DNA from: an uncultured Verrucomicrobiota bacterium
GTDB taxonomy: Bacteria > Verrucomicrobiota > Verrucomicrobiia > Limisphaerales > SXQI01
Direction: 5' to 3'
Length of the DNA: 64,000 nt
NCBI GenBank assembly: GCA_964478815.1
Contig: CAYZKY010000002.1
Location: forward strand, 1,980-65,979
Numbering within the stretch: the first letter of the stretch is position 1; every line of letters begins with the position of its first letter. The notes under the pieces are model-generated. The model was not told where the DNA came from and did no database searches. It was given only the letters and a program-made list of their open reading frames with translations. Positions 20,238 to 54,878 of this stretch are shown here, piece by piece. The position numbers were made by a program, and so were the translations under genes.

Positions 20238-20460
20238 GCCTCTGAGTCTGCTCCAAGCCCGACCCGCAGAGCAATGGGGAGTTGCAGAAGCACCCATGTA
20301 TCAAGCGCTGGCCAGCCACCGTGAAGCACGCAGTATGACTTCGATCCCCACAGACAATGCCCCGCTAACTGGAAGGATTCGACCATCGCCGCCGCATTTT
20401 TCAAAAAAATGGACTGACCTTCGCTCAGATCAAAGCGGTGAGGGTTTTACCGCCCCGACT

Positions 20461-21438
20461 TCATTCGAAACGAAACCGGCTCGCCGCCAGGTACTCAGCC
20501 AGGTTCTCGCTCGCCAGCCAATGACGCTGCAGTCGCTCGGCGACAGCTCCCGTGGTGTTGGAACCGGCAAACGGATCATAGACAAGGTCGGATTCGTCTG
20601 TCAGGAGTTTGATGAAAAACTCCGGCAGCGCCGCTGGAAATCGCGCTGGATGAATCTTCATTCCGGCTTCCTTGCACCGTTTTGTATAGAGGTCGTTCGC
20701 AGCGTTGTTGCCGAACTTCAACATCGTTTCTCCATCGGCGTCTTCCACGACATTCGGCGGGATTGATCCTCCCGGTTCGATTTCGGTAAATCCAAGCCGG
20801 ATATTGTGTCCGGATGGGCGCACCGTTTCCCGGACTCCGCGTTTGTTCAAGCGCAACATGTCGGCGCTGTATGGGCGAAGCACACGGCGATTATTCGCTT
20901 TGGGCGAGGGTGTTTTTGAAAACCACCAGACATATTCGACCGCGTCTTTGACGCGGATACGCCGCACCGTGACCCATTCCGCAGGCATCGGCATTTTTGC
21001 CGGATTATACCAAAAGCATTCCTGCGCCAGGTGGAAGCCGATCTCTTCCACCAAAGCAATCATCAGCTTAAAGTGGTAAATCGACCGCGTTGGGGCTCCT
21101 GCGTTGTAGCTTCCGCCGATATTTAGGACGAAGCTCCCGTCCGGCTTGAGCACTCTAAAAAAATCCCGGGCAAATTCGAGGAACCATTGGACATACTCGG
21201 CTTTCGCCACATTCCCATACTCTTTTTTGAAGTGCAGCGCATATGGAGGCGAAGTAAAAATGAGATTCACCGAATTGTCCGGCAATTGCGCCAAAACTTT
21301 CTTCGAGTCGCTCAAGTAGGCCGCGCCTTGCTCCGTTCGATAGGACGGCTCCCAGCCCGGCAGCAACGACGTCGGATGCTTGCCGTTCCCGAATACGAAG
21401 CTCGCTTGCGCTCTGGATATTTTCACCTCTTTTTTCAT
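20461..21438 (-). CDS. Beta-class amino DNA methyltransferase (N4-cytosine/N6-adenine family; the SPPY motif favours m4C)
   Basis: Motif IV (IFTSPPY) precedes motif I ([15 protein letters not shown]), which is the beta-class order. The size of 325 aa is typical of type II methyltransferases. Confidence 0.85.
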
Positions 21439-21566
21439 GATCCTAGCATTCGACGAAATGGGTTTCCATCCAGAAACCGCCTTACTATCATGCGCTGCCC
21501 GAAGCCATCTGCCTCGATTTTGGGCAGACTGGCTTCCACGATGAAGTTTGCTGAAATAGGTTTACA

Positions 21567-21800
21567 TTGTCAACTAAATTCGAAACCACAATTTTGCCTG
21601 AAGATTGGATATCCTCAGCCGAGGCGGCTCGGCTCAGGGGCATCTCGCGCCAAGCGGTTGCCAAGCTCATTCGCACGGGCCGTATTTCCACGCTGAAAAT
21701 CGCCGGGCGGCATCTCGTAAAACGCTCGGATATCCTAAATTTCCAACCTCGCAAGCCCGGCCGCCGCCGGCAGCATTTGCCGAATGAGCAGGATCGATGA
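21567..21800 (+). CDS. Small helix-turn-helix DNA-binding protein (excisionase/MerR-like HTH); possible controller of the adjacent nuclease-like gene
   Basis: ISSAEAARLRGISRQAVAKLIRTGRISTLKIAGRHLVKRSDI is an HTH_17-like pattern. The only available start is TTG at 21567 (in-frame stop at 21552). Its 3' end overlaps the next ORF by 17 nt. Confidence 0.5.
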   Translation: MSTKFETTILPEDWISSAEAARLRGISRQAVAKLIRTGRISTLKIAGRHLVKRSDILNFQPRKPGRRRQHLPNEQDR

Positions 21801-22491
21801 GGTCAAGACGCTGCTGGCTCGGTGCACGCTGGAGGAACGCCAGCAGGTTTTTCGATTTTTGCGGCAGGAGTTCAGAATCCATCCGATCGAAGACAAGCTT
21901 CATACGAAAGCGGAAGTTATTCTCGAAGCTTTCGGCCGAGCCAACGACCTGACCTTGCGGGGAATTCGGGGAATCATCGCCGAAGCGGCCTTCACCGTCG
22001 ATGTCGTCGGAACCTTGCCAGGATGGAAAGACGTCACGCCGCCCGGCGATCACGCGTTTGACTGCGCGCTCGAAGATCAGTTCGGTCGCGTTACCATTCA
22101 GGTGAAATTGCAGCGTCTGAAAGACCATAAACCCATGAGCGCCAAGCAAGGATACCGTTTCCTGCCGGCCGATCAGTTTGTTGTGGAGACCCAACGCACC
22201 CGAGGCGGGCTCGACACTCGAGGCGGCAAGACTCGGCCTTATCGATTTGGAGAATTCGAAATTCTGGCGGTTTCCCTCCATCCTTCGACAAATGACTGGG
22301 CAAATTTCATGTACACTGTGGCTGACTGGCTCCTTCCGGACCCGAACTACCCGCAGTGCCTCCTGAAATTTCAGCCCGTTTCGCCAACCGAGAATGCCGA
22401 CTGGACTCCTGATTTTCGAACAGCCGTTTCGTGGTTGCGAAGCGGCCGCAAAAAGCAAATTTGCGCGGATTTCGTTAACTCTGCTAAGTAA
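21784..22491 (+). CDS. Uncharacterised 235-aa protein; candidate restriction endonuclease partner of the methyltransferase
   Basis: The call rests mainly on position: it is divergent from the methyltransferase, overlaps the HTH gene and lies in the same low-GC islet. There is one weak nuclease-like pattern: E in IIAEAAF, then D in AFDCALED, then IQVK (D-x12-Q-x-K). I recognised no family. Confidence 0.4.
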   Translation: MSRIDEVKTLLARCTLEERQQVFRFLRQEFRIHPIEDKLHTKAEVILEAFGRANDLTLRGIRGIIAEAAFTVDVVGTLPGWKDVTPPGDHAFDCALEDQFGRVTIQVKLQRLKDHKPMSAKQGYRFLPADQFVVETQRTRGGLDTRGGKTRPYRFGEFEILAVSLHPSTNDWANFMYTVADWLLPDPNYPQCLLKFQPVSPTENADWTPDFRTAVSWLRSGRKKQICADFVNSAK

Positions 22492-22701
22492 ACTGGGGAA
22501 TTTCGATCGCGATCGCGATTCGCTGCCGGAAAGGCATCTCGCGATAGCGGGCGATCTCCATGGCGGTGGCTGGTTCAGGTGTGACCCGCGCAAGGCAACG
22601 AATGCGCCCGCGCCTTTCACCGAATTCCTTTGAGCCGTTTTGCCATTCGCGCGGGCCTCCATTCTCGGTTAGGTTGTGACTTCGTTCGGGAGTGAAAATT
22701 C

Positions 22702-29218: not shown

Positions 29219-30408
29219 GGCGGCGGGATGGGCAACCCCCGTTGCCGAAGCAGCCTTTCGTAGACCCGCCGTATGTCCTCCACCATGCGCTGGACGGGAA
29301 AGCGCGCCGAGACGAAAGCCCGGCCACGTTCCCCGCACTGGCGGCGGAAGCCCTCTTCCGAGGCCAGCCGCACGATGGCGGCTTCGAGTTGCGCCAGGTC
29401 GCCCGGCGGCACAAGCACGCCGGTCTCGCCCGTCCGGCACACCTCCCCCGCGCCGTCGCAATCGAAGGCCACGACCGGCTTGCCGGCGGCTAGGGCTTGC
29501 GGCAAGGCGCGGGGCAGGCCCTCGCGGCGGGAGAGATGGACGAGGAGATCCATGATGCCGACCAGCGCCGGAATCTCCGTGGGAGGAACGAGGCCGGTGA
29601 AGACGAAGCGATCCGCGAGCCCCAGGCCGGCGGCCATCTCCTTGAAGCGCGTCTCCCACGGACCGCCGCCGACCAGCAGGAACTTGATCTTCGGACAGGC
29701 TTGCACCAGGCGGGGCGCCACGGCAAAGAGATCGTCGTGGCCCTTGAGTTCGAACAGGCGCGCGATCTTGCCGATGACGAGGTCGCCGGGCGCGAGGCCA
29801 TAGTGGCGGCGGAGTTCCGGATCGTTCTTCGCTTCGAGAAACCGCCCGAGGTCGAACCCGCTAAACACCCGCGTGTAGTCGGCGGGCTGGCCGATGCCCG
29901 CCTCGAGGTACTGGCGAGTCATCGCTTCGGCCACGACGATGAAATGGTCGGTGGCCCTTCCTGCGATCCGCTCCGCCGCGCGGAAAATAAAATTCGAAAG
30001 GACCCCTTGCCAGGGGCCGAACGAAGGCCCGTGGATGGTATGCACAACCAGCGGCACCCCGGCATGACGTGCCGCCAGGCGCCCGACGATCCCGGCTTTG
30101 CCGCTGTGCGTATGGACGATGACGGGGTTGGTCTGGGCGAATCGCTTTCTCAGCGCCCGGTAGGCTTGCCAGTCCTGCCACGGCCGGACCGGCCGGACCA
30201 GATCCGGCTCGATCGCCAAGACGCCGGGCCATTTTTGAAAGAGCGGTTCGAGAGTGCCTTCCGGACCGGTCGTGGGGCCGCTGACCAGATCGACTTCCCA
30301 ACCGGGCCAGCCTTGAAAACCGATAACCGACGCGATGGTATTTTCCTGGGCTCCGCCGACGATGAGACGCGTGATGATGTGGGTGACGCGCATCGCCCCG
30401 CCCGTCAC
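29215..30408 (-). CDS. GT-B glycosyltransferase (CAZy GT4-like, glycosyl transferase group 1)
   Basis: RVTHIITRLIVGGAQ is the N-terminal Gly-rich loop. HTHSGKAGIVGR is also present, and the C-terminal segment EGLPRALPQALAAGKPVVAFDCDGAGEV is an E-x7-E type region. The start is either the GTG at 30408 (GTGA overlap with the upstream stop) or the ATG at 30393. Confidence 0.8.
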   Translation of the reverse strand: MTGGAMRVTHIITRLIVGGAQENTIASVIGFQGWPGWEVDLVSGPTTGPEGTLEPLFQKWPGVLAIEPDLVRPVRPWQDWQAYRALRKRFAQTNPVIVHTHSGKAGIVGRLAARHAGVPLVVHTIHGPSFGPWQGVLSNFIFRAAERIAGRATDHFIVVAEAMTRQYLEAGIGQPADYTRVFSGFDLGRFLEAKNDPELRRHYGLAPGDLVIGKIARLFELKGHDDLFAVAPRLVQACPKIKFLLVGGGPWETRFKEMAAGLGLADRFVFTGLVPPTEIPALVGIMDLLVHLSRREGLPRALPQALAAGKPVVAFDCDGAGEVCRTGETGVLVPPGDLAQLEAAIVRLASEEGFRRQCGERGRAFVSARFPVQRMVEDIRRVYERLLRQRGLPIPPP

Positions 30409-33400
30409 TTCAGCTTGGCCTGCATCTCCTCCAGGCGCGCCTGCACCTGCTTCTTTTCCTGTTCGAGCTCGGGAGTGGCCTGGGCGGGCACGTAAGTGAG
30501 ATATTTGCGATAATACCCGACGGCCGCTTCCGCATCCTTTTCCTGGTAGGCGATGTCGCCCAGCCCGTAATAGATGGCGTAGGCCATGGGCATGATCTCT
30601 TGGAGGCGGAGGTAGTCTTCGCGCGCTTCCTTCAGCCGCCCTGCTCGCAAAAAGAGCAACGCTCGATTGCGCAGCGCCGCCAGTTGATCGTCGTCGGCCT
30701 TGAGGACGCGGTCGAAATCGATTTCGGCGCGTTCGTAGTCCTTGAGTTCCATCCGCATGATGCCCCGGTAGGTCAGGGCCTGGGCGTTATCCAGATCGTA
30801 CTGGAGGATGCGGTCGGCGATGGCCACGCCGGCGTCATACTGCTTTTGCTGGAGCGCGATGAACGCTTTGTAAAGGAGCGCGGCCGTCTCGCGCGGCGAG
30901 GCGGTGAGCAGCAGATCCAGCGTTTCGGAGGCCTTGGGCAGGTTGTCCATCGCCATCAACGTCTCGGCCTTCTGCAGGAGCGCGAGGCGGTTGGTGGGAT
31001 TGCGCGACAACTGAGCCTCGATCAGATCGAGAACATTCGTCCAGCGGGCCGACGCCCGGTACAGCTCATAGAGCGATTGATTGACCGAGGGCACCTCAGG
31101 AAACGCGGCTCTGGCCGCGAGCAACGTCTTCTCCGCGTTTCCGAAATCGTCCTTGGCGTAATGCGCGGCGGCCTCGAGGTTGATGAGATCGAGCTGGTTC
31201 GTGACCGGAAGGTGGCCCAGCTCGGCTCGAATTTTGCGAATTTCCTCAAATCCGCGGTCGACCCAGTTGCCGTAAACATAGCCTTTGGCGATCCCGAGCC
31301 GGGCCACGAAATTGGTCGGCTCGAACCGGGTCACCTGCGTGAATTGCTGAATCGCCTGACGGAAGAGGGACTGGGTAATGAAAAGATTGCCCAGCCATTC
31401 GCAGAATTGGGGCTGGTCGAACGGGCCGTGCGCGGAGAGCAGCGAATCGATCGAGCCAAGCTGGCCGAACTGATCTTCCAGTTCCTTCGGGCCGATCTGC
31501 TGGCGCGGCCGGCCCGCCTGAAGATCGGCGTTGAACTTCCCGTTCAGATAGGCGGGCGCGTTGTTGGTGTTGAATTCGAACGCCCGCTGGAATAACTCCG
31601 CGGCCCCCTTCAGATTGCCCTGCTGCTGGACCTGCACGCCCCAGGTGTTGAAGGCGCGCGCGAAGTAATTGGCCACGTAGGTCCCGTCGATCACGCCGCG
31701 CCGGCCCGCCGCCCGGGCTTGATGGGCGTAATCGGGTGCGGCCGCCCATTTGGCCGTGTTGGCTTGAATCTGCTCCGGCGTCAGCGGCGGCGGGAGCACC
31801 TGATTCGTCGCATACAGATTGAGCGAGTAGATGTTCCCCTGCGGCACGGCATACATTTTTTCGAAGAAGTAGCCGAAGCTCGGCTGCAGGTAATACACGG
31901 AGTTGGAGGCGGCGAGGTTTGCCACCATCTGTTGCAGGATGACCTGCTCGACGCGCGTATTGCCTTGATCCTCGCTGATGACCACCGGCCAGCGCGTGCC
32001 GTAGTGCTGCGAGAGTTGCTGGTGGTAGCCGGGCAATTCCAGGGAACGGGTATTGACGAGCACGTACTCGTGCTTTTGCCCGGCGGTGCGGTGATACCCT
32101 TCGAGCAGGAGAATCTGCACGGGATCTTCGCTCAGAAGGTAGGCCGAGCGGGCCGGCAATTCCTTCGCGATATCCGCCGCCAGCGATTTGAGCAGATGGC
32201 CGTTCTGCGCGCGGATGGTTCCAAAATTCTGATAAGCCAGAGCCGCCGGCACGGCGGCCAAGGCCAGCAAGACGACGCCGCGCACGAGCGGATTGACCAG
32301 CCGCATCACATCGGCCTGGCGGCGGTAAGATTTTTTGGGTGGATCGGTGAAGGTGAGCAGCGCGTACCCGCTGTAGTAGCCGATGGCCAGCGCCCCCAGG
32401 TAGTAGAAGCTCAAGAACGGCAGGCCAAAGCCCAGCGCCCGCGGGCTGAACTTGGGATCGAAAACGACGAACAAACAGGCCGCGAGGAAGAAGAGATGCA
32501 CCACCCGGAACATGATGATGGTGATGTTCGCGCCGGCGGCGCTGGTATCGCCGAAGCTCGAAGGCCACCGTATCCCGATCAGCAGGATCGGCAGCAACGA
32601 GGTGATCGAGAGAATCGCCGCGCGATTGCGCAGGGGCGGAGTATCGAGCAGGAATTGCTTTTGCGCCGCCAGGTTGGCCCGGAGCACTTCGATAATCCCA
32701 AACTCCGCCTGGCCGGAAAGCACCCACCAGATCGGCAGGAAAAGGTAAAGCAGCAAACCCGCCACGCCCGCGCCGAGCATTCGGCCGATAAAGCCGAGGT
32801 GGAAAAACGCGCGCCCCCGCACCCAGACCAGGGCGATCAGCATCGCGGGGAAAAACCCGATGAAGCACCAGTCGTTGGTGACGGCGAGGCCGTAGACGAA
32901 CGCCATCCGCGTGAGCCAGGATTCGCGCTGCGAGACGCGGAATTCGAGCAGACAGCGAATCACGTAGGCAAAGAGCAGAATGTTAAGGCTCTCGCCCGTC
33001 AGCGCCGTGGCATGTTCCCAAAAAGTTAATTGAAGCCCGCAAACAAGCACCGCCAGGGCGGGAGGCACCCAGGCCAGCGGGATGGACAGGAGCGAGAATT
33101 CGCTCCGTTCGCGGATGCGCTGTTCATGAGTGCGGTCGTGCGGCAGGAGCATGACCGACCGCGCGAGCAATCCGAGAGCCACGGCTCCGCAAGCCGCGCT
33201 GAAAAGATTGAAGGCGATCGGCTGCAGGCCGGATGGGAGCAGCCGCAGCGGAGCCGTCACCAGGAAGAACAGCGGCCATTGCACCGGCAAGGCCCAGTCC
33301 CAGCCCGCCACCTTCGACACGACCAGCAGGCTGCGCAGGTTCACCCACTGGTTCAGCGAAATGGCGAATAGCGCCAGCATTACCCCGGCCAGAACCCAAG

Positions 33401-33446
33401 GCAGTTTCGAACGGACAAAACCCCGTGGGGTTCCTGCAGTCTCCAT
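30405..33446 (-). CDS. DUF2723/TMEM260-like polytopic membrane protein (GT-C-like) with a long C-terminal TPR region
   Basis: The N-terminal 430 aa or so contain about 11 helices, with the pattern I associate with DUF2723 (LNILLFAYVIRCLLEF, FVYGLAVTNDW). The C-terminal 450 aa or so carry repeated TPR-like 34-mers (e.g. AIYYGLGDIAYQEKDAEAAVGYYRKYL). Confidence 0.7.
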   Translation of the reverse strand: METAGTPRGFVRSKLPWVLAGVMLALFAISLNQWVNLRSLLVVSKVAGWDWALPVQWPLFFLVTAPLRLLPSGLQPIAFNLFSAACGAVALGLLARSVMLLPHDRTHEQRIRERSEFSLLSIPLAWVPPALAVLVCGLQLTFWEHATALTGESLNILLFAYVIRCLLEFRVSQRESWLTRMAFVYGLAVTNDWCFIGFFPAMLIALVWVRGRAFFHLGFIGRMLGAGVAGLLLYLFLPIWWVLSGQAEFGIIEVLRANLAAQKQFLLDTPPLRNRAAILSITSLLPILLIGIRWPSSFGDTSAAGANITIIMFRVVHLFFLAACLFVVFDPKFSPRALGFGLPFLSFYYLGALAIGYYSGYALLTFTDPPKKSYRRQADVMRLVNPLVRGVVLLALAAVPAALAYQNFGTIRAQNGHLLKSLAADIAKELPARSAYLLSEDPVQILLLEGYHRTAGQKHEYVLVNTRSLELPGYHQQLSQHYGTRWPVVISEDQGNTRVEQVILQQMVANLAASNSVYYLQPSFGYFFEKMYAVPQGNIYSLNLYATNQVLPPPLTPEQIQANTAKWAAAPDYAHQARAAGRRGVIDGTYVANYFARAFNTWGVQVQQQGNLKGAAELFQRAFEFNTNNAPAYLNGKFNADLQAGRPRQQIGPKELEDQFGQLGSIDSLLSAHGPFDQPQFCEWLGNLFITQSLFRQAIQQFTQVTRFEPTNFVARLGIAKGYVYGNWVDRGFEEIRKIRAELGHLPVTNQLDLINLEAAAHYAKDDFGNAEKTLLAARAAFPEVPSVNQSLYELYRASARWTNVLDLIEAQLSRNPTNRLALLQKAETLMAMDNLPKASETLDLLLTASPRETAALLYKAFIALQQKQYDAGVAIADRILQYDLDNAQALTYRGIMRMELKDYERAEIDFDRVLKADDDQLAALRNRALLFLRAGRLKEAREDYLRLQEIMPMAYAIYYGLGDIAYQEKDAEAAVGYYRKYLTYVPAQATPELEQEKKQVQARLEEMQAKLK

Positions 33447-33936
33447 AATTAGATGGAATCAGTTGAAACCATCGCCCCTGCTCTTGGCAAGCTCTTTGGC
33501 CGCGCCGATGCGCCCCTGCTGCCTGTGCGCCCGAATTTCCTCGGTGTGATTAAACGTGCCGGTCAGCCCCCGCGTGCCGGTCGGTGCCCTGGCCGGACGA
33601 CCCCGCCTGCCTGCCACTCCCTCGTCTGCCGACCGGCAGTGATAACCACCGCTCTCCGCCCGCATCCTGCTTGCGCAAAGGCACATCGCATGCGACCTTA
33701 CTTACATGACTGCGAACCTGTTTTCGTGGTCACCCGGTCCGTGCCGTAACATCAGCCTCGATGCCTTCGAGCTTCATGTTCCGCCTCGCCCACCGGGTGC
33801 CACGCTCCTCTCCACTGTACCCTCACTCTGCCCGCCCATCGCCGGCGCTTTCCGCTGCCCCCTCTCGGCTTTTCCCACCCCGTTTCCTCTCCACGACCGC
33901 CAGTTTGCTCGAGTCGGAGCCGCCTGGGAGACGCTG

Positions 33937-34023
33937 ATTTACACAGCACTTACACAGCACTTACACAGCGATTTACACAGTGCTTGCCCCCGATTTACAC
34001 AGCAAAATGTTGCATTTACACAG
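33937..34023 (+). repeat. Array of six direct A(T/C)TTACACAG repeats phased at 11-12 bp
   Basis: TTACACAG starts at 33939, 33950, 33961, 33973, 33995 and 34016, giving spacings of 11, 11, 12, 22 and 21 bp. The array lies in the 793-bp divergent intergenic region between the starts at 33446 (-) and 34240 (+). Confidence 0.85.
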
Positions 34024-34239
34024 TGGTTTTCCGTCTGCTTTCTCGCTTAAATCCCTCCCCATCAACTCGATGCGCGCTTTTGGCCTCCCACCCCGCTTTT
34101 TTCTCAACCTTAACGCGCCCTCCGGCCGCTCCCGCGCTGGCCTGGACGGCCCGCCAAGGCCGCGATTCTGACCGGCAGTTTCCATCGCGCCCGAATTTCC
34201 CTTGCCGTTCGCCGCGAGATCAGGGCATCTTCGAGCATC

Positions 34240-34986
34240 ATGAAAACCCGATCCAGCGGCGGCCGCGTCATGGTTGGAAGACAGGCCGGCCGGGCCTTCC
34301 GTTCGAAAGCAGGGGGCTTTACGCTCATCGAATTGTTGGTGGTGATCGCGATCATCGCCATCCTGGCGGGGATGCTGGTGCCGGCGCTCGTGGGCGGGAA
34401 AGTGGCGGTGCGGAAGAGTTTGTGCCTGAGCAACCAGCGGCAAATCGCCCTGGCCACGCAAATGTATGCCGACGATTTCAACGGCAACTTTCCGAAAGCG
34501 ACCAACGAAGACCACACCATGTGGATTACGCGCATGCTCAAAACCCGCCATTTCTCGACGTTGAAGATTTTCGAGGATCCCGCCGAGAAGGAGGGCGGCA
34601 CGGATTTCACCAAGCTGCGCACCTTCCCGATCACTATCGACGGGCGGCGCACGAACTTCATCGGATCGTACGGCATCAATGAACGGCTGGCGGGCCCGAA
34701 CGGAATTCTGATGCCGACCTACCAGTCCGTAAAAGAGCCGGTCACGCTCTATTACTTCGGGTGCGCCACCTATTTCATCGTCCCGGACTGGGATCACGAA
34801 CGCGTTTACAATGCCGGCGGACCGCAGCCCATCGGCGCGACCGCCAACCCTCCCCGCCGCAAATATGCACGGCACGGCTCGGGGGCCGGATCGAAGCCAG
34901 GCAGCGTCATAGCCTACGTGGACGGCCACGCAAAATTCGAGGATCAAGTCTTCATCCAAAAGCGGTTGCGCTGGACTCAAGATTAA
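34240..34986 (+). CDS. Type II secretion/type IV pilin-like pseudopilin (prepilin N-terminal methylation motif, DUF1559-like body)
   Basis: The cleavage/methylation motif is GGFTLIELLVVIAIIAILAGMLVPAL. The C-terminal segment RHGSGAGSKPGSVIAYVDGHAKF resembles the H-Xn-DG motif of DUF1559 proteins. Confidence 0.8.
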   Translation: MKTRSSGGRVMVGRQAGRAFRSKAGGFTLIELLVVIAIIAILAGMLVPALVGGKVAVRKSLCLSNQRQIALATQMYADDFNGNFPKATNEDHTMWITRMLKTRHFSTLKIFEDPAEKEGGTDFTKLRTFPITIDGRRTNFIGSYGINERLAGPNGILMPTYQSVKEPVTLYYFGCATYFIVPDWDHERVYNAGGPQPIGATANPPRRKYARHGSGAGSKPGSVIAYVDGHAKFEDQVFIQKRLRWTQD

Positions 34987-38815: not shown

Positions 38816-41800
38816 TCAGAAGGTCACACAGCCGTTAGGCCCACCCCAACTTTTGCCTCCAGCCGCCCTGCATGCAGATTCCTCGTGGAGGCTGTTTGTT
38901 ATTGTTCCTCCAGTGCATCCTGGCCCGTCATAGCAAGGCCCCATCGGCGTAGACGGTAGTGTTCCGCCGGCAATGACGGAATAGAACCGCATGGCTTGAT
39001 CCGTAGTTACTCGGTAAGGCGTGGTCGCATTTGTGACCTCGAACCACGGACCGTCGACATCATGGGAGGTGATGAGTCTTCCACCTGTATACGTGAGCAC
39101 CAATACATTGCCATCCCGGGCCGCCGAGAGTTCGGGTGTCGCGGATTGTTCGCCATCCGGCAGCGGCGAAGCGACCGCCGCGGCGTTCTGGCCGCCCTGG
39201 CCGCCGGTGTAGATGGCCTGAACTTCCGAGCCGTCGAGCGCGCGCGCCCAGACGGCCACGTCGTCGATCAGGCCGCCCCAGACGGCACCGTTGTCAGCAT
39301 CGACGATCGGCGGGTCGATCGGCACCGTCACCGGCGGATCCTGGGTATCGTCGAGCTGGTTGTCGCGGAGCGTGGCACCCACCGACAGCCATTTGATGGC
39401 GTCGAGGTTGTTCAAGTTGCCGGTGTAGTCGCTCGTGGCGCGGAGCACCCCGTTGACATAAAGGCGGAGGGCCAGGCCATCCGCCGTCAATACCAGGTGG
39501 TGCCAGGTGTTGGCCGGCGAGGGCACATCGAGCACCGTCGAGGGTTCGTTCGGTCCGACGGCGATGACGCCAGCGAGGTTGGCGATCGGATTGCCTTCGG
39601 CATCCGTATTGGGGGCCGCGCGCAGGAAGAAGGCGCCCTTATTGCCGATCACCCGGCTGGGCACCCAATTGTTCACGATGGAACCGCCCGCCGAGGAGCC
39701 GTTCACCCAGGCGGAAACGGTCATGGCCGACCCGGGCTTGGTGTATTGCGGCACGAAGACGAAGGTGCTGGCTCCATCGAAGGAAAGCGCCCCGCCAACG
39801 CGGCCGGCCTTCCATTGCGAACCCGCCGTCGCTTCAAACCCTTTGAGCTGGCCCGCGGTTCCTCCCGCCGCCGAGTTCGCGGCCGAAAGGCCGGAGGTTT
39901 CGTCGAACTTGAGATGCACCACGAGGTCCTCGGCGATGTTCTTCGAGGTCAGCACGTCGGAGAGCACCGCCACGCTCTCGACCGATCCGGCCGAGTTGCT
40001 CGCGCGGAGCTGATAACGGCCGATGTCGCCGGCGCTGGCCTGGCCAATCACGAGCGTCGCGGAGGTCGCGCCGGCGATCGGCACGCCATCCTTGAGCCAT
40101 TGCAACTGCGCATTGGCGGGAACGACCGTGGCGCTCAGTTCGAGCTTGCCGCCCACGAAGGCATTGCGTGCCACCGGGCCGGTGACGACCGGCAGTTCGT
40201 CATAGGTCTTGTTCAAGACCAATTGGAGACCATTGAGGGCCGGCCCGCGGCGCGGTTCAGCTCCCGCCGGCTGGAACCAATCCGGCGAACGCCAGGTCAG
40301 TTCGACAATGCCGTCCGTGCCCACGACGATGCGATTGAACCGCACCACGTTGCCGACGCCCCGCGCGTCGGCGGTCTTGCCGGCGCCGAGCTTCCAGCCC
40401 GGGTCGGCATTGTACTCATCCGCGTTCAGCGGACGCATATACTGGCTTTGCGTGATCGTGTTGCCGCCGGCATCCGTCGAGGTCACGGTGTAATCCACCT
40501 GGAAGAATTCCAGGGGCACCTGCACCGAGTAGGCGATGAGCGAGTGCTCGCCGGCCGGGACTCCGTAGAAGGTCACCCGTCCGAAGTTATCCACGCTGGG
40601 CGCGCCGGTGTTTACCGCAGTGCCGTTGAGCATGCGGCGGTTCGCGTCGTCCGTGCCGGTGCCGACACCCCATTGACCGGACGCGGCGAAATCCACCGAA
40701 ATCGCCGCATGGGGCGTGCCTTTGCTGGTATTGAGGACTCCCGGATCGACGGTGGCCGTTTGCGTTTCCAGGTTGTTCCAATGCGCGGCCAGTTCCAGAC
40801 CGGCGACGTCATCGTCGTTCATGGCCGTCGGCGCGCCGTTCGCCCCGCCGCCGTTCCAGTTCAGGCTGATGATATCGAGCGTCGGCGTGTGAATAACCGC
40901 CTTCACCGGATCGCTGACCGAGCAGCCGACAATCTCGACGGTATACTCGTCGTTCGCGTTCGCGGCCGTGATCGCTGGAGTCGTGTAGGTCAGCGCAGTC
41001 GCTCCCGAGATGGGCTGGCCGTTCCGGCGCCATTGGAGCTGCCACGGGCCATTGACCTTCGTATAGAACGTCGCCGTCGAGCCACTGAGCACGTAGGTAT
41101 CGGCCGGAGGCGTGACAAAGCCGGGCGGCGGATTGGCGTTACAGTCGTTGCCCGTCACCGCCAGCAATTCGACTTCGGCCACCTGCATGCAGCAGCCGTT
41201 CGGCGTCGTGGTCGTTTGATGAACGATCCAGCGGTAGTGCTTGTACGTCTTGGTGTTGGCAAAGTAGAACTCCTTGCGTTCGAACCGCGCGGCAAACGGA
41301 GGAATATTCTCGATCCGGACGATCTGTTCCCACGTTCCGGAATTGAACGCCGTGAGGGCATCGTCGTTCGAGCCTTCGAGCGTCACGATCGTCGGATCGC
41401 GCTCGGGGCCATCATTGGCCGACTGAATGGTCATGCCGGTGACGACGGCCGGAGGCACTCGCGGAGAAACCGCGAAGCCGGAGGGAGAGAACCCGCTCAC
41501 CGCGCCGTCGCGGCCGCTGTCGAAGTTCAGATACTTCGTCGGCTGGTCGTCGATGATATTGGCCACGCCCTCGGACCCCGGGCTGTTGGAGGAGGACGGA
41601 ATGATCGGATCGCCCGGCTGGGTGATATCGCGCGGAGCGGCCGTGCCGTGCAATTCGACTTCGGCGATCTGCATGCAGCAGCCGTTCGGAGTGGTCGCCG
41701 CTTCGGTCAGCGTCCAGCGATAATGTTTGAAGGGCTTGTAGTTATCGAAGAGGAACGTCTGCTTCTGGAACCGGGCCGCGAACGCCGGAATGTCCGTCAA

Positions 41801-43171
41801 GGTGGCGATCGGTTCCCAGTTGCCGGCGTTGAAGGCGGTGACGGTGTCGTCGTTCGAGCCTTCCAGCGTGATCGCTTTCGGATCGCGTTCGATCGCGTCG
41901 TTGGCCGATTGCATGGTAATCGCGCTCACGACCGTTCTGCCAACGGCAGGGGTGACCACAAAGCCGGACGGCGAGAAGCCGCTCACGGCGCCATCGCGGC
42001 CGCTGTCGAAGTTCAGATACTTCGTCGGCTGGTTATCGATGACGTTCGCCACGCCTTCGGAGCCGGGGCTGTTCGAGGACGAAGGAATGATGGCATCGCC
42101 AGGCTGGGTCACGTCGGAAGGCAGCACCGTGCCCAATAGCTCGACCTCCGCGATCTGCATGCAGCAGCCGTTCGGAGTGGTGGCCGCTTCGGTCAATGTC
42201 CAGCGGTAATGGCGGTAATACTTCGCGTTGGCGAAGGTGAAGGTCTGGTTCTGGAAACGGCCCGCGAACACCGGAATATCCGCGATGTCGACGATTTGCT
42301 CCCAGGTGCCGGACGCGAAATCCGTAATCGCGCCATCGTTCGATCCTTCGAGCTTGATCCGTTTGGGATCGCGCTCCGGGCCGTCGTTGGCGGATTTCAT
42401 CGAAACGCCCGTCACCTTGGTCAGTCCGACCTGCGGCGTGACGATGAAGCCGGACGGCGAGAAGCCGCTCACGGCGCCATCGCGGCCGCTGTCGAAGTTC
42501 AAATATTTGGTCGGCTGGTTGTCGATCACATTCGCCACGCCTTCCGAGCCGGGGCTGTTCGAGGAGGAGGGAATGATCGCATCCGTGGGCTGGGTAATGT
42601 CGCCCGGCACCACCGTGCCGAGCAGCTCCACTTCCGCGATCTGCATGCAGCAGCCGTTCGGGGTGGTGGCCGCTTCGGTCAACGTCCAGCGGTAATGGCG
42701 GTAAGCCCGCGTATTGGCGAACGAGAAGCTTTTCTTCTCGAACCGCGCCTCGAACGCCGGGATGTCGGTAATGGTCGCGATGGTCTGCCAGTTGCCCGCC
42801 GAAAACGATGTGACGGCGTCGTCATCGGAGCCTTCGACGGTCACCGCTTTCGGATCGCGTTCGGGGCCGTCGTTGGCCGAAGTCATCGTCAGGCCCGTAA
42901 TCACCGTGCGTCCCACCGATGGGCTGACGACGAAGCCGGACGGCGAGAAGCCGTTCACGGCGCCGTCGCGGCCGCTATCGAAGTTGAGATACTTGGTGGG
43001 CTGGTTGTCGATGACGTTCGCCACTCCTTCCGAGCCGGGGCTGTTGGATGACGATGGAATGATCGGATCTCCCGGTTGCGTCACGTCGACCTGCCCCAGG
43101 GCTTTCGGAGAAAGCCCCAAGGCGGCGAACAACGCCAGGGAGAACACGGTCGTACGTTTTACGATACTCAT
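38816..43171 (-). CDS. Giant secreted multidomain protein: 4 tandem discoidin/galactose-binding-like modules, Ig-like domains and a LamG (concanavalin-like) domain
   Basis: A signal peptide follows the internal ATG (MSIVKRTTVFSLALFAALGLSPKALG). Four 162-aa modules each read QPGD.IIPSSSNSPGSEGVANVIDNQPTKYLNFDSGRDGAV.GFSPSGF...SANDGPERDPK...YRHYRWTLTEAATTPNGCCMQIAEVELLGT. Ig-like segments are present (QLQWRRNGQPISGAT, LQWLKDGVPIAGAT). The LamG signature reads LVVHLKFDETSG...GGALSFDG...MTVSAWV...HHLVLTADGLALRLYVNG...IDDVAVWARAL. Confidence 0.75.
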   Translation of the reverse strand: MSIVKRTTVFSLALFAALGLSPKALGQVDVTQPGDPIIPSSSNSPGSEGVANVIDNQPTKYLNFDSGRDGAVNGFSPSGFVVSPSVGRTVITGLTMTSANDGPERDPKAVTVEGSDDDAVTSFSAGNWQTIATITDIPAFEARFEKKSFSFANTRAYRHYRWTLTEAATTPNGCCMQIAEVELLGTVVPGDITQPTDAIIPSSSNSPGSEGVANVIDNQPTKYLNFDSGRDGAVSGFSPSGFIVTPQVGLTKVTGVSMKSANDGPERDPKRIKLEGSNDGAITDFASGTWEQIVDIADIPVFAGRFQNQTFTFANAKYYRHYRWTLTEAATTPNGCCMQIAEVELLGTVLPSDVTQPGDAIIPSSSNSPGSEGVANVIDNQPTKYLNFDSGRDGAVSGFSPSGFVVTPAVGRTVVSAITMQSANDAIERDPKAITLEGSNDDTVTAFNAGNWEPIATLTDIPAFAARFQKQTFLFDNYKPFKHYRWTLTEAATTPNGCCMQIAEVELHGTAAPRDITQPGDPIIPSSSNSPGSEGVANIIDDQPTKYLNFDSGRDGAVSGFSPSGFAVSPRVPPAVVTGMTIQSANDGPERDPTIVTLEGSNDDALTAFNSGTWEQIVRIENIPPFAARFERKEFYFANTKTYKHYRWIVHQTTTTPNGCCMQVAEVELLAVTGNDCNANPPPGFVTPPADTYVLSGSTATFYTKVNGPWQLQWRRNGQPISGATALTYTTPAITAANANDEYTVEIVGCSVSDPVKAVIHTPTLDIISLNWNGGGANGAPTAMNDDDVAGLELAAHWNNLETQTATVDPGVLNTSKGTPHAAISVDFAASGQWGVGTGTDDANRRMLNGTAVNTGAPSVDNFGRVTFYGVPAGEHSLIAYSVQVPLEFFQVDYTVTSTDAGGNTITQSQYMRPLNADEYNADPGWKLGAGKTADARGVGNVVRFNRIVVGTDGIVELTWRSPDWFQPAGAEPRRGPALNGLQLVLNKTYDELPVVTGPVARNAFVGGKLELSATVVPANAQLQWLKDGVPIAGATSATLVIGQASAGDIGRYQLRASNSAGSVESVAVLSDVLTSKNIAEDLVVHLKFDETSGLSAANSAAGGTAGQLKGFEATAGSQWKAGRVGGALSFDGASTFVFVPQYTKPGSAMTVSAWVNGSSAGGSIVNNWVPSRVIGNKGAFFLRAAPNTDAEGNPIANLAGVIAVGPNEPSTVLDVPSPANTWHHLVLTADGLALRLYVNGVLRATSDYTGNLNNLDAIKWLSVGATLRDNQLDDTQDPPVTVPIDPPIVDADNGAVWGGLIDDVAVWARALDGSEVQAIYTGGQGGQNAAAVASPLPDGEQSATPELSAARDGNVLVLTYTGGRLITSHDVDGPWFEVTNATTPYRVTTDQAMRFYSVIAGGTLPSTPMGPCYDGPGCTGGTITNSLHEESACRAAGGKSWGGPNGCVTF
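41150..43090 (-). repeat. Four intragenic tandem repeats with an exact 486-bp period
   Basis: The marker CTGCATGCAGCAGCCGTTCGG (plus strand) starts at 41183, 41669, 42155 and 42641. All three spacings are exactly 486 bp. Confidence 0.85.
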
Positions 43172-43405
43172 GTGTTCAATAATGTTCGGTTGTTTTTTCC
43201 GCAGGGTTCGAGATTGAGCATGAGGAGAGCGCTTTGGCTCTGTCAAACTCTATTCGCGCCCAGCCGATCTGTTCCTTTGAAGGCACACCCTGGGAAGGCG
43301 CCATTGCAGTTCACGTTTTCTTCGGTCCGGCCGGCATCCCGGAGGCGGCCTGCTTTTTTGAGGGAATGAGGAGATCCCCCGGCATTCTTGATCTTCTCTA
43401 ATAGC

Positions 43406-46827: not shown

Positions 46828-48393
46828 TCACGGCGGAATGTGCGACCGGTGAATCGGCGTGGAGAGGCTCATCGGCAAGACGCGCTCTCCCAGAGGGCGC
46901 GAGAAGGTCACGCCGGCGAACCAGTCGGCCACCGTCACGCGGGCGGGCAGTGTCAGGATCAGCCCCTCCGGCGTTCGTTCCAGGGGAGCCTTGCGCCAGA
47001 TTCGGTTCCACCAGCGCTCGTCGACATTCGTCGACACATAAGCCCACAGTTCTCCGCCCTGCGGCATCGCCACGGCTTCTAACCGGAGCGACCGCCTGGA
47101 TTGACTGACGCGTGTCAGCCTCGGCACGGGTGTCCACCCCCACGCTAAATTCTCTGTATGAAAGAGCAATTCGCCGCTGGCCCACGCCGCCCCTCCGCTA
47201 TCTTGAGGGCCCCCAGGCAGCGTGAAGTCATGATTCACGCCGGGTGCGATGCACAAGCACTTCTCGCTCAGGATGGCGTCCAGTGTCTGCTGCGCCGCGG
47301 ACTGGTAAAAATAAGTGTCGTTCGAAGCGGCATACAACAGAATGCTTGCTCGCACGCGTTTCAGCCGGGGTGCTGGATCGAAATGAGCCAGCCATCTCCG
47401 GCGTTCCTCCTCCGTCTTCCCGAGGAGATACTCTCGCCAGACGGTTTCCATGAAAAAAGCGGTCCCGAACAATGAAAAGGCGCTGCGCACTCGCTCGTCG
47501 AGCAACGCACACAGCATGATCGAGACATATCCACCCAAACTCGAACCGCTGACGGCGACCCGCTTCGGGTCCACGTCCGGATGCTCCGACACCAGGTTGA
47601 AGGCCCCCAGAGCGGCGAGGATCGCATCGAACAGCATCGAAGCCCGCGCGTTCGGGATCGCGTCCCACGCGCGGACGTCCAGCGTCCGGTGCCGCGAGAG
47701 GCTCTGTTGCGTTTCGGGATTGGACAGCCCCGGCAGCTCCACGGCGATCGCCACGAATCCCAGCTTTGCCCACCACAACGCCATGAAATCCTGCGCCACG
47801 CCGTTGCCGCCGTGGCAGATCAGGATGCCCGGATGCGCCCGGGGCAGCCGCACCACCGGCTCCGCCAGCACGGCATAGACCTCGTTCGGCTGGATGCCGC
47901 CTTCGGCGGTGCCTTCGAAATTTGCGAAGCGAAACTTCCGCAGGCGGACGCCGTCCGTCGTTTCGTCTGAAAAAACGGTCGTCCACGGCGGCACCCGGCG
48001 CAGGTACGGGTAGAACAAATCGTCTTCCGGAATCGGTTCGGGCGGGGGGAGGGCGGCAGCCGAGGCGGTGCGAAAGAATCCGGTGCCGTTCCCCGTCGGC
48101 AACCGCAGTCCTTCGCCTGGCTGCACAGGTCGGGAGCCCCAGGTTACATCGTGCCAAAACCGAAAGTCGCGCGATTCTTGCAGCCGCCAGGCCCCCGCCG
48201 AACCAGGCTCTCCCTGCACCTTGAAGTCGATAAACCCTGGATTCGGCGGGTAGTTGGGTTGAACCAGCACTTGAGCCCGTCCCCCCGCGGTCAACGCCTG
48301 GACCAGGAGCAAACCCATCCCGCAAGCAGCCGCTAATCTCGAGATGAAATCGCGCCGCGGTATATCAATGCCGACATCCGTGGATCGCCTCAC
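46828..48393 (-). CDS. Secreted alpha/beta hydrolase (S9 peptidase / esterase-like)
   Basis: A Tat-like leader reads RRDFISRLAAACGMGLLLVQALTA. A hydrolase core is present (ILICHGGNG), with the nucleophile elbow VSGSSLGGY. Confidence 0.6.
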   Translation of the reverse strand: MRRSTDVGIDIPRRDFISRLAAACGMGLLLVQALTAGGRAQVLVQPNYPPNPGFIDFKVQGEPGSAGAWRLQESRDFRFWHDVTWGSRPVQPGEGLRLPTGNGTGFFRTASAAALPPPEPIPEDDLFYPYLRRVPPWTTVFSDETTDGVRLRKFRFANFEGTAEGGIQPNEVYAVLAEPVVRLPRAHPGILICHGGNGVAQDFMALWWAKLGFVAIAVELPGLSNPETQQSLSRHRTLDVRAWDAIPNARASMLFDAILAALGAFNLVSEHPDVDPKRVAVSGSSLGGYVSIMLCALLDERVRSAFSLFGTAFFMETVWREYLLGKTEEERRRWLAHFDPAPRLKRVRASILLYAASNDTYFYQSAAQQTLDAILSEKCLCIAPGVNHDFTLPGGPQDSGGAAWASGELLFHTENLAWGWTPVPRLTRVSQSRRSLRLEAVAMPQGGELWAYVSTNVDERWWNRIWRKAPLERTPEGLILTLPARVTVADWFAGVTFSRPLGERVLPMSLSTPIHRSHIPP

Positions 48394-48494
48394 GCACCTC
48401 TCCTATCTCGAATGAACCGCCGAAGCAAGCCCCCGACACGGATCGGGCGCGACTGGGCGCATCTCGGTATGCCCCCCGAGCGGCGCCGGCTTTT

Positions 48495-48522
48495 GGTTTG
48501 GAGTTCCGCGTTTACGCGGTCC
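48495..48522. repeat. Small GC hairpin element, intergenic copy
   Basis: The sequence is GGTTTGGAGTTCCGCGTTTACGCGGTCC. The hairpin is CCGCG-TTTA-CGCGG at 48506-48519. Confidence 0.6.
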
Positions 48523-48763
48523 GGGGGCAGGAAAAAATCGCGCACGGCGGCACTCTTCAACCTTGATTCATCCCATCCCCTGTCGCATACTAACGGTATG
48601 ACGACTCAATATGAGGCGTCATTGCGAAACAGGGACGTTCTGACTCAAACCTCTCCGTTTCCCAATGACCCGCTAACCGTTCGGACCTTTCCCGTACTTG
48701 GCATTTCCATGTCCTCCTTGGGAGCACGCTTGCTCCCAAGCATTCCCGCCTCCTGCTTGGAGT

Positions 48764-54853: not shown

Positions 54854-54878
54854 CGCGGAGGATCTGAACCTGGCGGAT

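Follow-up and report, generated by a model that had tools for sequence, protein, structure and literature searches.

Two intergenic arrays of one short word, repeated in the same direction at about one unit per helical turn and differing in copy number between co-occurring strains, were found in the window, by which we mean the whole 64,000-nt stretch of DNA analysed from an uncultured Verrucomicrobiota bacterium. We tentatively favour the view that these arrays act as operator platforms for a protein that binds DNA in head-to-tail fashion, most likely an OmpR/PhoB-family response regulator with a winged helix, on the basis of the sequence and geometry of the units. To our knowledge, next to nothing is known of how uncultivated Verrucomicrobiota control transcription. 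Between closely related strains the arrays differ in copy number and, at one locus, in the word as well.

Two arrays of a single phased word

The initial annotation had described six same-direction repeats at 33937–34023, the first four separated by gaps of 2, 2 and 3 bp and the last two at distances of 22 and 21 bp, together with a sister array at 48.8 kb. Direct reading and pattern searches confirmed all of these elements, and Tandem Repeats Finder (TRF) recovered both arrays independently. The repeat features are as follows:

33937 to 34023, plus strand: array 1, six AYTTACACAG units starting at 33937, 33948, 33959, 33971, 33993 and 34014 (direct reading and pattern search)
48764 to 48882, plus strand: array 2, about ten ATTTACAC units starting at 48764, 48786 (ATTGACAG), 48796, 48808, 48818 (CTTTACAC), 48830, 48840, 48852, 48862 and 48873 (pattern search and TRF)
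48898 to 48930, strand not given: short element CCGTTTCTGGTTCAATGATTTGCGTAAA, adjoining array 2
48967 to 48976, plus strand: outlying unit-like word ATTGACACAC, separated from array 2 by an element of about 35 bp

Array 1 is made up of ATTTACACAG in four of its six units and ACTTACACAG in the other two, with start-to-start distances of 11, 11, 12, 22 and 21 bp. If it is framed as four 22-bp boxes, two of them carry two good half-sites each, and in the remaining two a consensus half comes after a degenerate one (GCTTGCCCCCG, CAAAATGTTGC). The distances in array 2 are 22, 10, 12, 10, 12, 10, 12, 10 and 11 bp, the alternation of 10 and 12 bp generating a higher-order unit of 22 bp, which is also the period reported by TRF (4.0 copies, score 120). 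All 16 units of the two arrays lie on the same strand, at about one per helical turn, and share the consensus ATTTACACRS. Positions 1–9 (ATTTACACR) are near-invariant, at 1.3–2.4 bits each, whereas the linkers between units (1–4 nt) are constant neither in sequence nor in length; it is the word, rather than the repeat unit, that is constrained. The 16 units provide at least two head-to-tail repeats of 6–8 conserved bp, as expected of half-sites, and are spaced by 10, 11 or 12 bp with further sites at 21 or 22 bp.

An excess over shuffled sequence, proposed as a check when the array was first described, is clear: TTACACAG occurs eight times in the 64-kb window versus 0.22 expected and a maximum of two in shuffles, and all eight copies are confined to arrays 1 and 2. 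The two arrays also contain 13 of the 15 window copies of TTTACAC, and outside them the word is at chance level (no ATTTACAC seen versus 0.3–0.6 expected). No flank homology was found between arrays 1 and 2, whose units are their only common sequence, and the parts of the spacers outside the arrays share only a borderline 15-mer at differing relative positions. With no common flanks, a shared recognising factor explains the two loci better than a duplicated segment does.

ORFs that overlap the arrays have GC3 values of 0.50–0.64 versus 0.76–0.84 for real genes, and these low values, together with the implausible products of the ORFs, rule out a coding repeat. Mobile element ends or a MITE were likewise dismissed, given that the arrays have the same orientation, lack flank homology and bracket the housekeeping gene hisS. 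Two scans found no sigma-70 consensus promoter in or beside the arrays, and a sigma-54 promoter beside them was retained as no more than a minor rival, as the TGG-N9-TGCW matches that exist there have weighted scores at background level.

Flanking genes and strain variation

The genes and spacer segments that surround the arrays are as follows:

30405 to 33446, minus strand: TMEM260-like (DUF2723) and TPR protein, recorded as a 991-aa product with its start at 33380
33502 to 34239: lineage-specific C-rich non-coding segment that holds array 1 (plus strand 40% C, 23% G)
34240 to 34986, plus strand: prepilin-type N-methylation/DUF1559 pseudopilin, closest of the genes with a 5' end towards array 1
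46828 to 48393, minus strand: AXE1/DLH-type hydrolase, 371 bp from array 2, to which no other gene presents its 5' end
49019 to 50404, minus strand: S8 subtilase gene with its 3' end nearest array 2, 137 bp beyond the right edge of the array

The arrays are flanked by pseudopilin, glycosyltransferase-like protein, hydrolase and subtilase genes, with hisS between them. The region of array 1 is divergent and intergenic, as originally described, but it is probably distinct from the promoter of the TMEM260-like gene: homology to a relative with 83% identity (L122) stops at 33501, which places array 1 on the pseudopilin side of the synteny break. Since the conserved upstream region of the TMEM260-like gene reaches only this position, array 1 is probably outside its promoter. 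The distance of 224 bp initially given to the pseudopilin ATG has to be corrected, as the distance from the end of the last unit is 216 nt to the ATG at 34240 (longest ORF), or 246 nt to an alternative start at 34270 that is implied by a 238-aa NCBI member (P0171; 90% cluster; 111,522-bp contig). The value of about 490 bp to the DUF2723 gene is right for the longest ORF (491 bp, start at 33446) but not for the recorded 991-aa product, which starts 557 bp from the array.

The hydrolase that faces array 2 is lineage-restricted, with only three database matches at E<1e-60. Units point in opposite directions relative to the nearest gene at the two loci. None of the window ORFs scanned was a Trans_reg_C (OmpR-family) gene, the only related genes in the window being a stand-alone receiver and a hybrid kinase at 58–62 kb.

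Comparison of co-occurring strains revealed that both arrays vary in length. Array 1 has five units in L234 versus six in the window, a difference of 11 bp; 44 bp of array 2 are missing in L237 and L238, and assemblies from five samples end inside array 2. Unit number is polymorphic among closely related strains, in the manner of a promoter VNTR. In L305, the array-2 locus carries a different 11-bp array, built on the word AACTTGAAACG, and the whole spacer is replaced; extra units follow past the short element, and CCGTTTCTGGTTCAATGATTTGCGTAAA is the sole part of the variable spacer that can still be aligned to this alternative allele (CCGTTTATCAACGACTTACGTAAA). The arrays are absent from the orthologous spacers compared at six loci of relatives (L122, L235, L236, L300, L301 and L305). 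The array-less orthologues include a TMEM260-like gene with 83% identity and pseudopilins with 82%, 79%, 76% and 67% identity; for P0123 the comparison covers only 98 bp upstream, from a gene table. Conservation in related genomes, another check put forward initially, hence does not extend to identities of 83% or less, and the arrays are young and unstable, being conserved no further than strain level.

A putative response-regulator operator and competing readings

Among the three readings offered by the initial annotation, the OmpR/PhoB-type array is the best supported: geometry and motif resemblance speak for it, and the absence of conservation beyond strain level speaks against it. A binder of this type is favoured because the core TTTACA/TGTAAA matches the half-sites of KdpE, RpaB and WalR. 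The KdpE site consists of TTTATA/TTTACA, 5 bp apart (PMC3264566), the RpaB HLR1 element of (G/T)TTACA(T/A)(T/A), 2 nt apart (PMC6525291), and the WalR consensus is TGTWAH-N5-TGTWAH (PMC4168254). TTTACA is identical to the KdpE S2 half-site and TGTAAA fits TGTWAH, which is a resemblance and not a proof; the WalR consensus has a single exact match in the window, at 48863–48879 inside array 2, and HLR1 is matched with two mismatches. Like the KdpE, RpaB HLR1 and WalR/PhoP-Bsu half-sites, the arrays combine this core with a direct-repeat spacing of 10–11 bp. Unlike those sites, which occur as single pairs and belong to Proteobacteria, Cyanobacteria and Firmicutes, the array word extends to ATTTACACRS, with A at position 1 (15/16) and CAC at positions 6–8. 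The 22-bp superperiod of array 2 is dimer-like, and by analogy the strong and weak box halves of array 1 fit the dimer arrangement of OmpR/PhoB proteins.

The operators closest in layout are those of PhoP and ArcA. Streptomyces PhoP binds 11-nt DRus, up to 6–8 per operator, arranged as core and extension units (PMC2275107), and ArcA sites comprise 2–5 DRs at centre-to-centre distances of 11 or 22 bp, with site quality decreasing as the number of sites increases (PMC3798270). PHO boxes and ArcA multi-DR sites thus resemble the arrays in having direct repeats on a single helix face, with centres 11 or 22 bp apart. These operators have a strong core and weaker extension units that are bound cooperatively head-to-tail, as would be predicted for the arrays. 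In contrast to PhoP and ArcA sites, the arrays contain 6 and 10 units, nearly all of consensus quality, are separated from the nearest start codon by 216–371 bp, vary in number between strains and are absent in close relatives.

If the operator reading is correct, one protein molecule would bind per helical turn, head-to-tail on a single DNA face, with its recognition helix reading GTGTAAAT on the minus strand, which corresponds to TTTACAC on the plus strand. Pairs of half-sites (22-bp boxes) would probably be the functional unit, and cooperative oligomerisation along the array would govern the output of neighbouring promoters, the predicted targets being the pseudopilin gene for array 1 and the AXE1/DLH hydrolase gene for array 2. 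Slippage or unequal recombination could make the arrays grow or shrink by 11 or 22 bp with helical phase kept, and such phase-keeping steps would create a fast-evolving, strain-specific regulatory dial. Several observations run against an operator. No Trans_reg_C gene was found among the window ORFs scanned, no promoter or transcription start could be placed, and the units of the two arrays face opposite ways relative to their nearest genes. Distances of 216 and 371 bp to the nearest start codons are far for a class I/II activator, ten near-perfect sites exceed the usual range, and, as all units are near consensus, the pattern also fits recent amplification. The regulators that are resembled come from other phyla, and the shared word is short and AT-rich. 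Neither does the array recur as an operator should, since only two loci are visible, orthologous promoters lack it and the word is swapped in L305.

The same evidence for protein binding would also serve another protein that stacks on direct repeats, such as a ribbon-helix-helix protein of the ParR/omega type, an AraC- or LytTR-type regulator, or a PilR-like sigma-54 enhancer-binding protein for which the array would be an upstream activating sequence; we regard this as rather unlikely. An enhancer-type site would accept opposite orientations and long gene distances, and TGG-N9-TGCW elements lie directly beside both arrays, at 34024 (+) and at 48719 (+)/48738 (-). In P. aeruginosa, tandem (C/G)TGTC repeats that precede a pilin gene are bound by PilR, and array 1 faces a prepilin-type gene, with a minus-strand unit that starts with CTGTG. 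However, these sigma-54-like matches are at background level, as 153 window sites score at least 8/12 and the site at 34024 only 7/12, and no Sigma54_activat, ParR/ParM or AraC gene is nearby. Ribbon-helix-helix centromeres adjoin partition genes, which are not present here. In parC of plasmid R1, the parMR promoter is flanked by two blocks of 11-bp repeats, five in each. The arrays are similar to parC-type sites and promoter-flanking iterons in carrying some ten direct repeats of 11 bp along a single helix face, and at array 2 and at the 54.7-kb array a short conserved element has units to its left and right; in contrast to parC, they lie among chromosomal housekeeping genes, with no adjacent partition or replication genes and no match in the plasmid database. 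An iteron origin or parC-type centromere was rejected for want of adjacent rep or partition (parMR/parAB) genes. The cluster of DnaA boxes suggested initially, which would act as an origin or as a datA/DARS-like titration site with low-affinity 9-mers 2 bp apart, is highly improbable. As in the low-affinity arrays of E. coli oriC, same-direction 9-mers lie about 11 bp apart and match the relaxed box at 8/9 positions: 12 of the 16 units agree to this extent with TTWTNCACA, the gaps between 9-mers in array 1 are 2–3 bp, and cumulative GC skew across the window reaches a weak minimum near 48–50 kb. Yet none of the 16 units meets TTWTNCACA, because position 1 is A (15/16) or C (one unit) and never T; the window holds two matches, neither of them in an array, and canonical DnaA boxes are unclustered throughout. 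Further differences from oriC are that no dnaA or dnaN was found in the window, that there is no separate AT-rich unwinding element (DUE), the arrays themselves being the lowest-GC 40-mers of their spacers, and that spacing alternates between 10 and 12 bp instead of keeping the fixed 2-bp gap of DnaA arrays. To the right of 51.8 kb every gene runs on the minus strand, the reverse of what an origin at 48.8 kb predicts, and the number of boxes is not conserved, with strain differences of 11 and 44 bp and another word in one strain.

The arrays could also be functionless VNTRs, selfish or neutral, produced when an 11/22-bp unit slips within rapidly evolving spacers. The copy-number differences of 11 bp (L234) and 44 bp (L237/L238), the contig breaks in array 2, the absence from all relatives with identities of 83% or less and the replaced spacer of L305 are all consistent with such an origin, and simple tandem repeats that contain TTACAC are common in public data. 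We nevertheless consider it unlikely, as neutral decay does not predict a near-invariant core with varying linkers, one 9-bp word occurs at two loci that lack common flanks (for an arbitrary word, a prior of about 1 in 10^5), and the four intergenic tandem arrays of the window all have periods of 10–11 (or 20–22) bp and not arbitrary ones. Tandem repeats in promoters form contingency loci in host-adapted bacteria, as with the 7-bp repeats of Haemophilus hmw and the TAAA repeats of Neisseria nadA. The present arrays are similar in being intergenic, in lying by genes for surface or secreted proteins and in varying in unit number among co-occurring strains; in contrast, their 11-bp units imply changes that keep helical phase rather than shift it, and the organism is environmental and uncultivated. 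A purely structural role, in which 10–11 bp phasing bends DNA whatever the word, and thereby stimulates or insulates a promoter or attracts a nucleoid-associated protein, appears quite unlikely. In a wedge model, arrays 1 and 2 are predicted to rank by curvature within the top 1.5% and 0.3%, respectively, of 101-bp window segments, with end-to-end/contour ratios of 0.93 and 0.90 versus a window mean of 0.98. The arrays are also the most AT-rich portions of their spacers, and differing words occur with one period at the same locus across strains and elsewhere in the window, which makes the period the shared feature. The predicted curvature is nonetheless far below that of a phased A6 control (ratio 0.46), each unit has only a single 4-bp tract (ATTT), and bending leaves unexplained both the near-invariance of all nine positions, CACR included, and the identity of the word at two loci. 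The bent DNA of the initial annotation is probably a side-effect, the modelled intrinsic curvature being modest and probably a by-product. Action at the RNA level is very improbable; it would involve a leader or small RNA whose GUGUAAAU (minus) or C-rich, G-poor AUUUACAC (plus) units bind an RNA-binding protein, or a Rho loading site on the plus strand. The plus strand of both arrays is 14% G and 29% C, the whole spacer around array 1 is C-rich, and, relative to a minus-strand gene 370–560 bp away, the two arrays are oriented alike, but the arrays match no RNA family in Rfam, no promoter or terminator was found bracketing them, and a hairpin near array 2 (48717–48740) is not kept in a sister strain.

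Further phased arrays and population-level variation

Searches of public data for the array returned mainly unrelated repeats. A stricter metagenome scan gave 111 loci, nearly all of them low-GC simple tandem repeats, and missed one contig known to carry the array, which indicates that the collection is without this lineage. The viral scan gave 61 loci, mostly a 12-bp coding repeat, and BLAST against a plasmid database yielded no match to the arrays. Literature searches on the word itself and on direct-repeat promoters of Verrucomicrobia found nothing specific.

Within the window, two other intergenic repeats have a similar design. About nine STGGTGAAT units are arranged around an AT-rich core at 54693–54863, and TCGTTCACGCT occurs twice as a direct repeat at 56972–56994. 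These two, and the AACTTGAAACG array of L305, have TTNAC-like cores and a period of 10–11 bp, which fits a set of paralogous regulators. With little confidence, we put forward a wider view in which helically phased 10–11-bp repeats form interchangeable cassettes beside genes for accessory envelope or secreted proteins. Words (ATTTACACRS, AACTTGAAACG, STGGTGAAT) and copy number that differ between co-occurring strains would then amount to rewiring and tuning at the population level, the strain choosing the regulator and the number of sites setting the gain; or the arrays would recruit an undescribed filament-forming DNA-binding protein specific to PVC bacteria (Planctomycetota-Verrucomicrobiota-Chlamydiota).

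Were the operator reading true, ATTTACACRS would offer a clean, high-information word with which to trace the regulon and fish for its regulator. Steps of one helical turn, together with replacement of the word at one locus, suggest rapid population-level rewiring, in an environmental bacterium, of genes for accessory surface and secreted proteins, a phenomenon usually discussed only for host-adapted pathogens. Even if they are neutral, the arrays break short-read assemblies at exactly these sites, which is a practical warning.

Phased repeat units at two intergenic loci

The initial annotation had described six same-direction repeats in 11-bp phasing, all on one face of the helix, and a sister array at 48.8 kb; each of these claims was borne out. 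By sequence reading, with which a pattern search agrees, array 1 (33937-34023) consists of six AYTTACACAG units on a common strand, with starts at 33937, 33948, 33959, 33971, 33993 and 34014 and start-to-start distances of 11, 11, 12, 22 and 21 bp. Array 2 (48764-48882) holds ten units (eight perfect ATTTACAC, one ATTGACAG and one CTTTACAC) spaced by 22, 10, 12, 10, 12, 10, 12, 10 and 11 bp, spacings that keep the units on one helix face; an isolated ATTGACACAC lies outside it, at 48967. Both arrays were detected by Tandem Repeats Finder (TRF), whose best description of array 2 has a 22-bp period, 4.0 copies and a score of 120. Their flanking genes are as follows.

Start 33446 or 33380, minus strand: TMEM260-like/TPR gene, on one flank of array 1
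ATG 34240, or 34270 as implied by P0171 (a 238-aa NCBI pseudopilin cluster member), plus strand: prepilin-type/DUF1559 pseudopilin gene, on the other flank of array 1
Flanks of array 2, both minus strand: a subtilase gene (3' end facing the array) and an AXE1/DLH-type hydrolase gene (5' end facing the array)

When compared with shuffled sequence, the array word stands out clearly: TTACACAG occurs eight times in the 64-kb window versus 0.22 expected (largest shuffle value 2), and all eight copies fall within array 1 or array 2, as do 13 of the 15 copies of TTTACAC. Elsewhere in the window the word is no commoner than chance predicts, with no copy of ATTTACAC versus 0.3-0.6 expected. The pair is a real and statistically unambiguous set of helically phased direct repeats.

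Alignment of the 16 units gave the consensus ATTTACACRS, in which positions 1-9 carry 1.3-2.4 bits apiece, while the bases preceding the word and those at position 11 and later are all but unconstrained and the linkers between words vary from 0 to 3 nt, indicating that the constraint is on the word and not on the whole repeat unit. The alternation of 10 and 12 bp implies that array 2 is built of 22-bp units with two words apiece. Array 1 can also be framed in 22-bp boxes: the first two have two good words each, and the last two have a degenerate first half (GCTTGCCCCCG, CAAAATGTTGC) and a consensus second half. Similarity between the two loci is limited to the units. ORFs drawn across the arrays have GC3 values of 0.50-0.64 versus 0.76-0.84 in real genes, and their products are implausible; no Rfam family matched the arrays, and neither a sigma-70-like promoter nor a convincing terminator was found at them.

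The window, which belongs to a Verrucomicrobiota MAG, is ordinary chromosome (proS-like, gltX, hisS, uvrA, accD) and also encodes glycosyltransferases, FG-GAP/ASPIC proteins and MFS transporters; the flanking protein's named homologues belong to Verrucomicrobiae and Verrucomicrobiota. A scan of window ORFs revealed no dnaA, dnaN, partition, replication, integrase or OmpR-family genes, and signalling was represented only by a hybrid histidine kinase and a stand-alone receiver (58-62 kb).

Variation among strains and relatives

Array length differs between close strains. In L234, an IMG contig whose pseudopilin is 98% identical, array 1 has five units versus six in the window; one ACTTACACAGC unit, exactly 11 bp, is absent, and the flanks show scattered point differences. 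In L237 and L238, two Logan contigs with a 96% identical hydrolase, array 2 is shorter by 44 bp, that is, four units or two 22-bp boxes. Contigs of five different runs end within array 2, at one common 30-mer, and one contig ends in the last unit of array 1 (L121, L237, L238, L302, L303 and L304; Logan, six sequencing runs in all). Since contig ends recur inside them, the arrays are systematic assembly breakpoints. De Bruijn assemblers stop where two array-length variants co-occur, and the contig ends are consistent with such co-occurring variants.

The initial annotation had suggested looking for conservation in related genomes; the arrays are present at strain level and missing at 83% identity and below (pseudopilin and L122 loci). 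The 83% relative L122 has a 294-bp spacer, another upstream neighbour and no array, and its homology to the window stops at 33501, which places array 1 on the pseudopilin side of a synteny break, beyond the conserved upstream region of the TMEM260-like gene. The array was likewise absent upstream of pseudopilin orthologues at 82%, 79%, 76% and 67% identity.

A different form of change is seen in L305 (IMG 3300015615, Ga0183872_11462180), which comes from the same sample as L234 and covers the orthologous hydrolase-subtilase spacer. Here window positions ~48440-48890 are replaced by unrelated sequence, and another 11-bp direct-repeat array occupies the position of array 2 (L305 1414-1527; AACTTGAAACG three times, an inverted copy, then more copies; TRF period 11, 100% matches). 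Only a short array-adjoining element (CCGTTT..TCAAYGAYTTRCGTAAA) is still alignable between the two spacers. The L305 spacer also has a strongly AT-rich, promoter-like block that is absent from the window.

Evidently, array evolution proceeds through slippage or unequal exchange that adds or removes one or two helical turns at a time; such steps would change the number of sites and keep their helical phase. What is unusual is how many units there are and how perfect they are, that they turn over by whole helical turns among co-occurring strains, and the allelic replacement with a different word.

Candidate binding proteins and competing explanations

An identical 9-bp word at two unrelated loci, drifting linkers, a single helix face and a 22-bp superperiod suggestive of dimers are, taken together, signs of a sequence-specific protein that would bind head-to-tail, and we consider it rather probable that these are protein-binding arrays, whatever the family. 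Of the documented systems, the operators of OmpR/PhoB-family response regulators come closest. In Streptomyces, PhoP recognises direct repeat units of 11 nt, of which at least two are required and up to six to eight occur per operator, with conserved core units nucleating cooperative binding on weaker extension units (PMC2275107), and in ArcA sites two to five repeats follow one another with their centres 11 or 22 bp apart (PMC3798270). The core of the array word equals known half-sites of KdpE (TTTATA/TTTACA, 5 bp between; PMC3264566), RpaB HLR1 ((G/T)TTACA(T/A)(T/A), 2 nt between; PMC6525291) and WalR (TGTWAH-N5-TGTWAH; PMC4168254), although such family assignments liken a short AT-rich word to sites of other phyla. 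The sole exact match to the WalR consensus in the window falls within array 2.

On the strength of this geometry and half-site match, operator arrays for an OmpR/PhoB-type (winged-helix response) regulator, as first proposed in the initial annotation, are the most likely mechanism, which we advance tentatively; the likely targets would be the genes of the pseudopilin (array 1) and the hydrolase (array 2), each of them lineage-restricted or variably placed. Against it, the scan of window ORFs turned up no cognate regulator, no promoter was located, the nearest start codons are 216 bp (array 1) and 371 bp (array 2) away, the units of array 1, viewed from their nearest gene, run the opposite way to those of array 2, and the arrays are missing from relatives. 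Ten near-consensus units also exceed the usual operator architecture, which recent amplification could explain.

The proposal of a DnaA-box-like array, and with it an origin, was rejected on consensus failure, gene context and strain variation, and we regard it as very improbable. None of the 16 units fits TTWTNCACA, since 15 of them begin with A, and canonical boxes are unclustered. A weak cumulative skew minimum at ~48-50 kb is outweighed by the lack of a separate AT-rich unwinding element and of dnaA or dnaN in the ORFs scanned, and by gene orientation right of 51.8 kb, which contradicts an origin at 48.8 kb; nor would 44-bp variation and a word swap between strains be expected of an origin. 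Bent DNA, also proposed at the outset, fares better: in a Bolshoy-Trifonov wedge model, whose values are only indicative, the arrays are more curved than all but 0.3-1.5% of window segments, yet remain well short of a phased A6 control. That the period, and not the word, is common to all the phased arrays fits curvature, the invariant word does not, and curvature is plausibly a secondary matter, either a by-product or a contributing property.

A neutral VNTR fits in part, as it accommodates the polymorphism and non-conservation, but not the conservation of word versus linker, the presence of one word at both loci or the helical periods. A binder from a different protein family, such as a sigma-54 enhancer-binding protein, is a less likely alternative: an enhancer-binding protein would be compatible with the distances and orientations, and TGG-N9-TGCW elements adjoin both arrays but score at background level. 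For RNA-level roles we see no support beyond the strand composition of the arrays.

Other phased arrays and repeats

A third array, of STGGTGAAT units with a 10-11 bp period, lies between a UbiA-family gene and an Rce1-like gene, with two units at 54693-54711 and about seven at 54794-54863 (TRF). Between its two blocks lies the 60-bp stretch with the highest AT content in the window (54725-54788, with TTGACT...TATATT), and all four exact window copies of its word are in that array. A perfect 11-bp doublet (TCGTTCACGCT twice, 56972-56994) lies 47-70 bp upstream of the start, at 56925, of a xylose-isomerase-like TIM-barrel gene, and looks like a putative single-dimer site of the same general class. 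According to TRF, intergenic tandem arrays in the window all have 10-11 or 20-22 bp periods, and coding ones mostly multiples of three. From their sequence, we read the intergenic words (ATTTACAC, ATTCACCAS for the third array on the reverse strand, CGTTCAC and CTTGAAAC) as possible variations on a TTNAC theme.

Outside the window, the Lentisphaeria MAG JAPXLT01 has at least five loci (L008, L024, L039, L060, L062) at which exact 11-bp GACTTTACACG units are repeated 4-6 times in tandem, in some cases interleaved with GACGGGACACG; one array directly follows the 3' end of a prepilin-type gene. A dispersed family of 11-bp TTTACAC arrays thus exists in another Planctomycetota-Verrucomicrobiota-Chlamydiota (PVC) member. 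A metagenome scan with a stricter pattern returned 111 loci, nearly all low-GC simple repeats, and missed a known array-bearing IMG contig, so that absence there is uninformative. BLAST of the arrays against a plasmid database gave no match, and a literature search on the word and on Verrucomicrobial repeat operators found no report.

The 61 loci of a viral scan were mostly a 12-bp tandem repeat, CATTTACACC(N)3, also seen in Bacteroidota, Clostridia, Treponema, archaea and many phage contigs (genome loci L014-L118, viral loci L244-L298). It was rejected as a relative of the non-coding arrays: it is a protein repeat, coding in 36 of 43 arrays (genome and viral loci; open frame of at least 150 codons), and its encoding of (x-G-V-N)n explains its recurrence across phyla.

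A perfect hairpin at 48717-48740 (10-bp stem, CTTGGGAGCA-CGCT-TGCTCCCAAG), 24 bp left of array 2, has the form of a TGG-N9-TGCW (sigma-54-like) element whichever strand is read; a stem-breaking A-to-C change in a sister strain makes a structural role doubtful. A 486-bp tandem repeat at 41345-43075 (3.6 copies, 76% matches) is a coding domain repeat in the gene of a 1476-aa Laminin_G_3/Ig-domain surface protein (38816-43246, minus strand), and accounts for the near-matches to ACTTCGACAG at 41517, 42003 and 42489. Two copies of a ~155-bp direct repeat (62283-62440 and 62529-62680), each with CCTATTTACGCGGGTTTCGTGAGGGTGGG, lie in a G-rich region inside a 417-aa ORF without Pfam match (62202-63455, minus strand). 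Finally, a low-GC island at 20000-22700 (GC 0.56-0.60 versus 0.63-0.65 in neighbouring windows) carries an N6/N4 DNA methylase gene (20461-21438, minus strand, GC3 0.64) and a 331-aa ORF without Pfam match, and is probably an acquired restriction-modification module.
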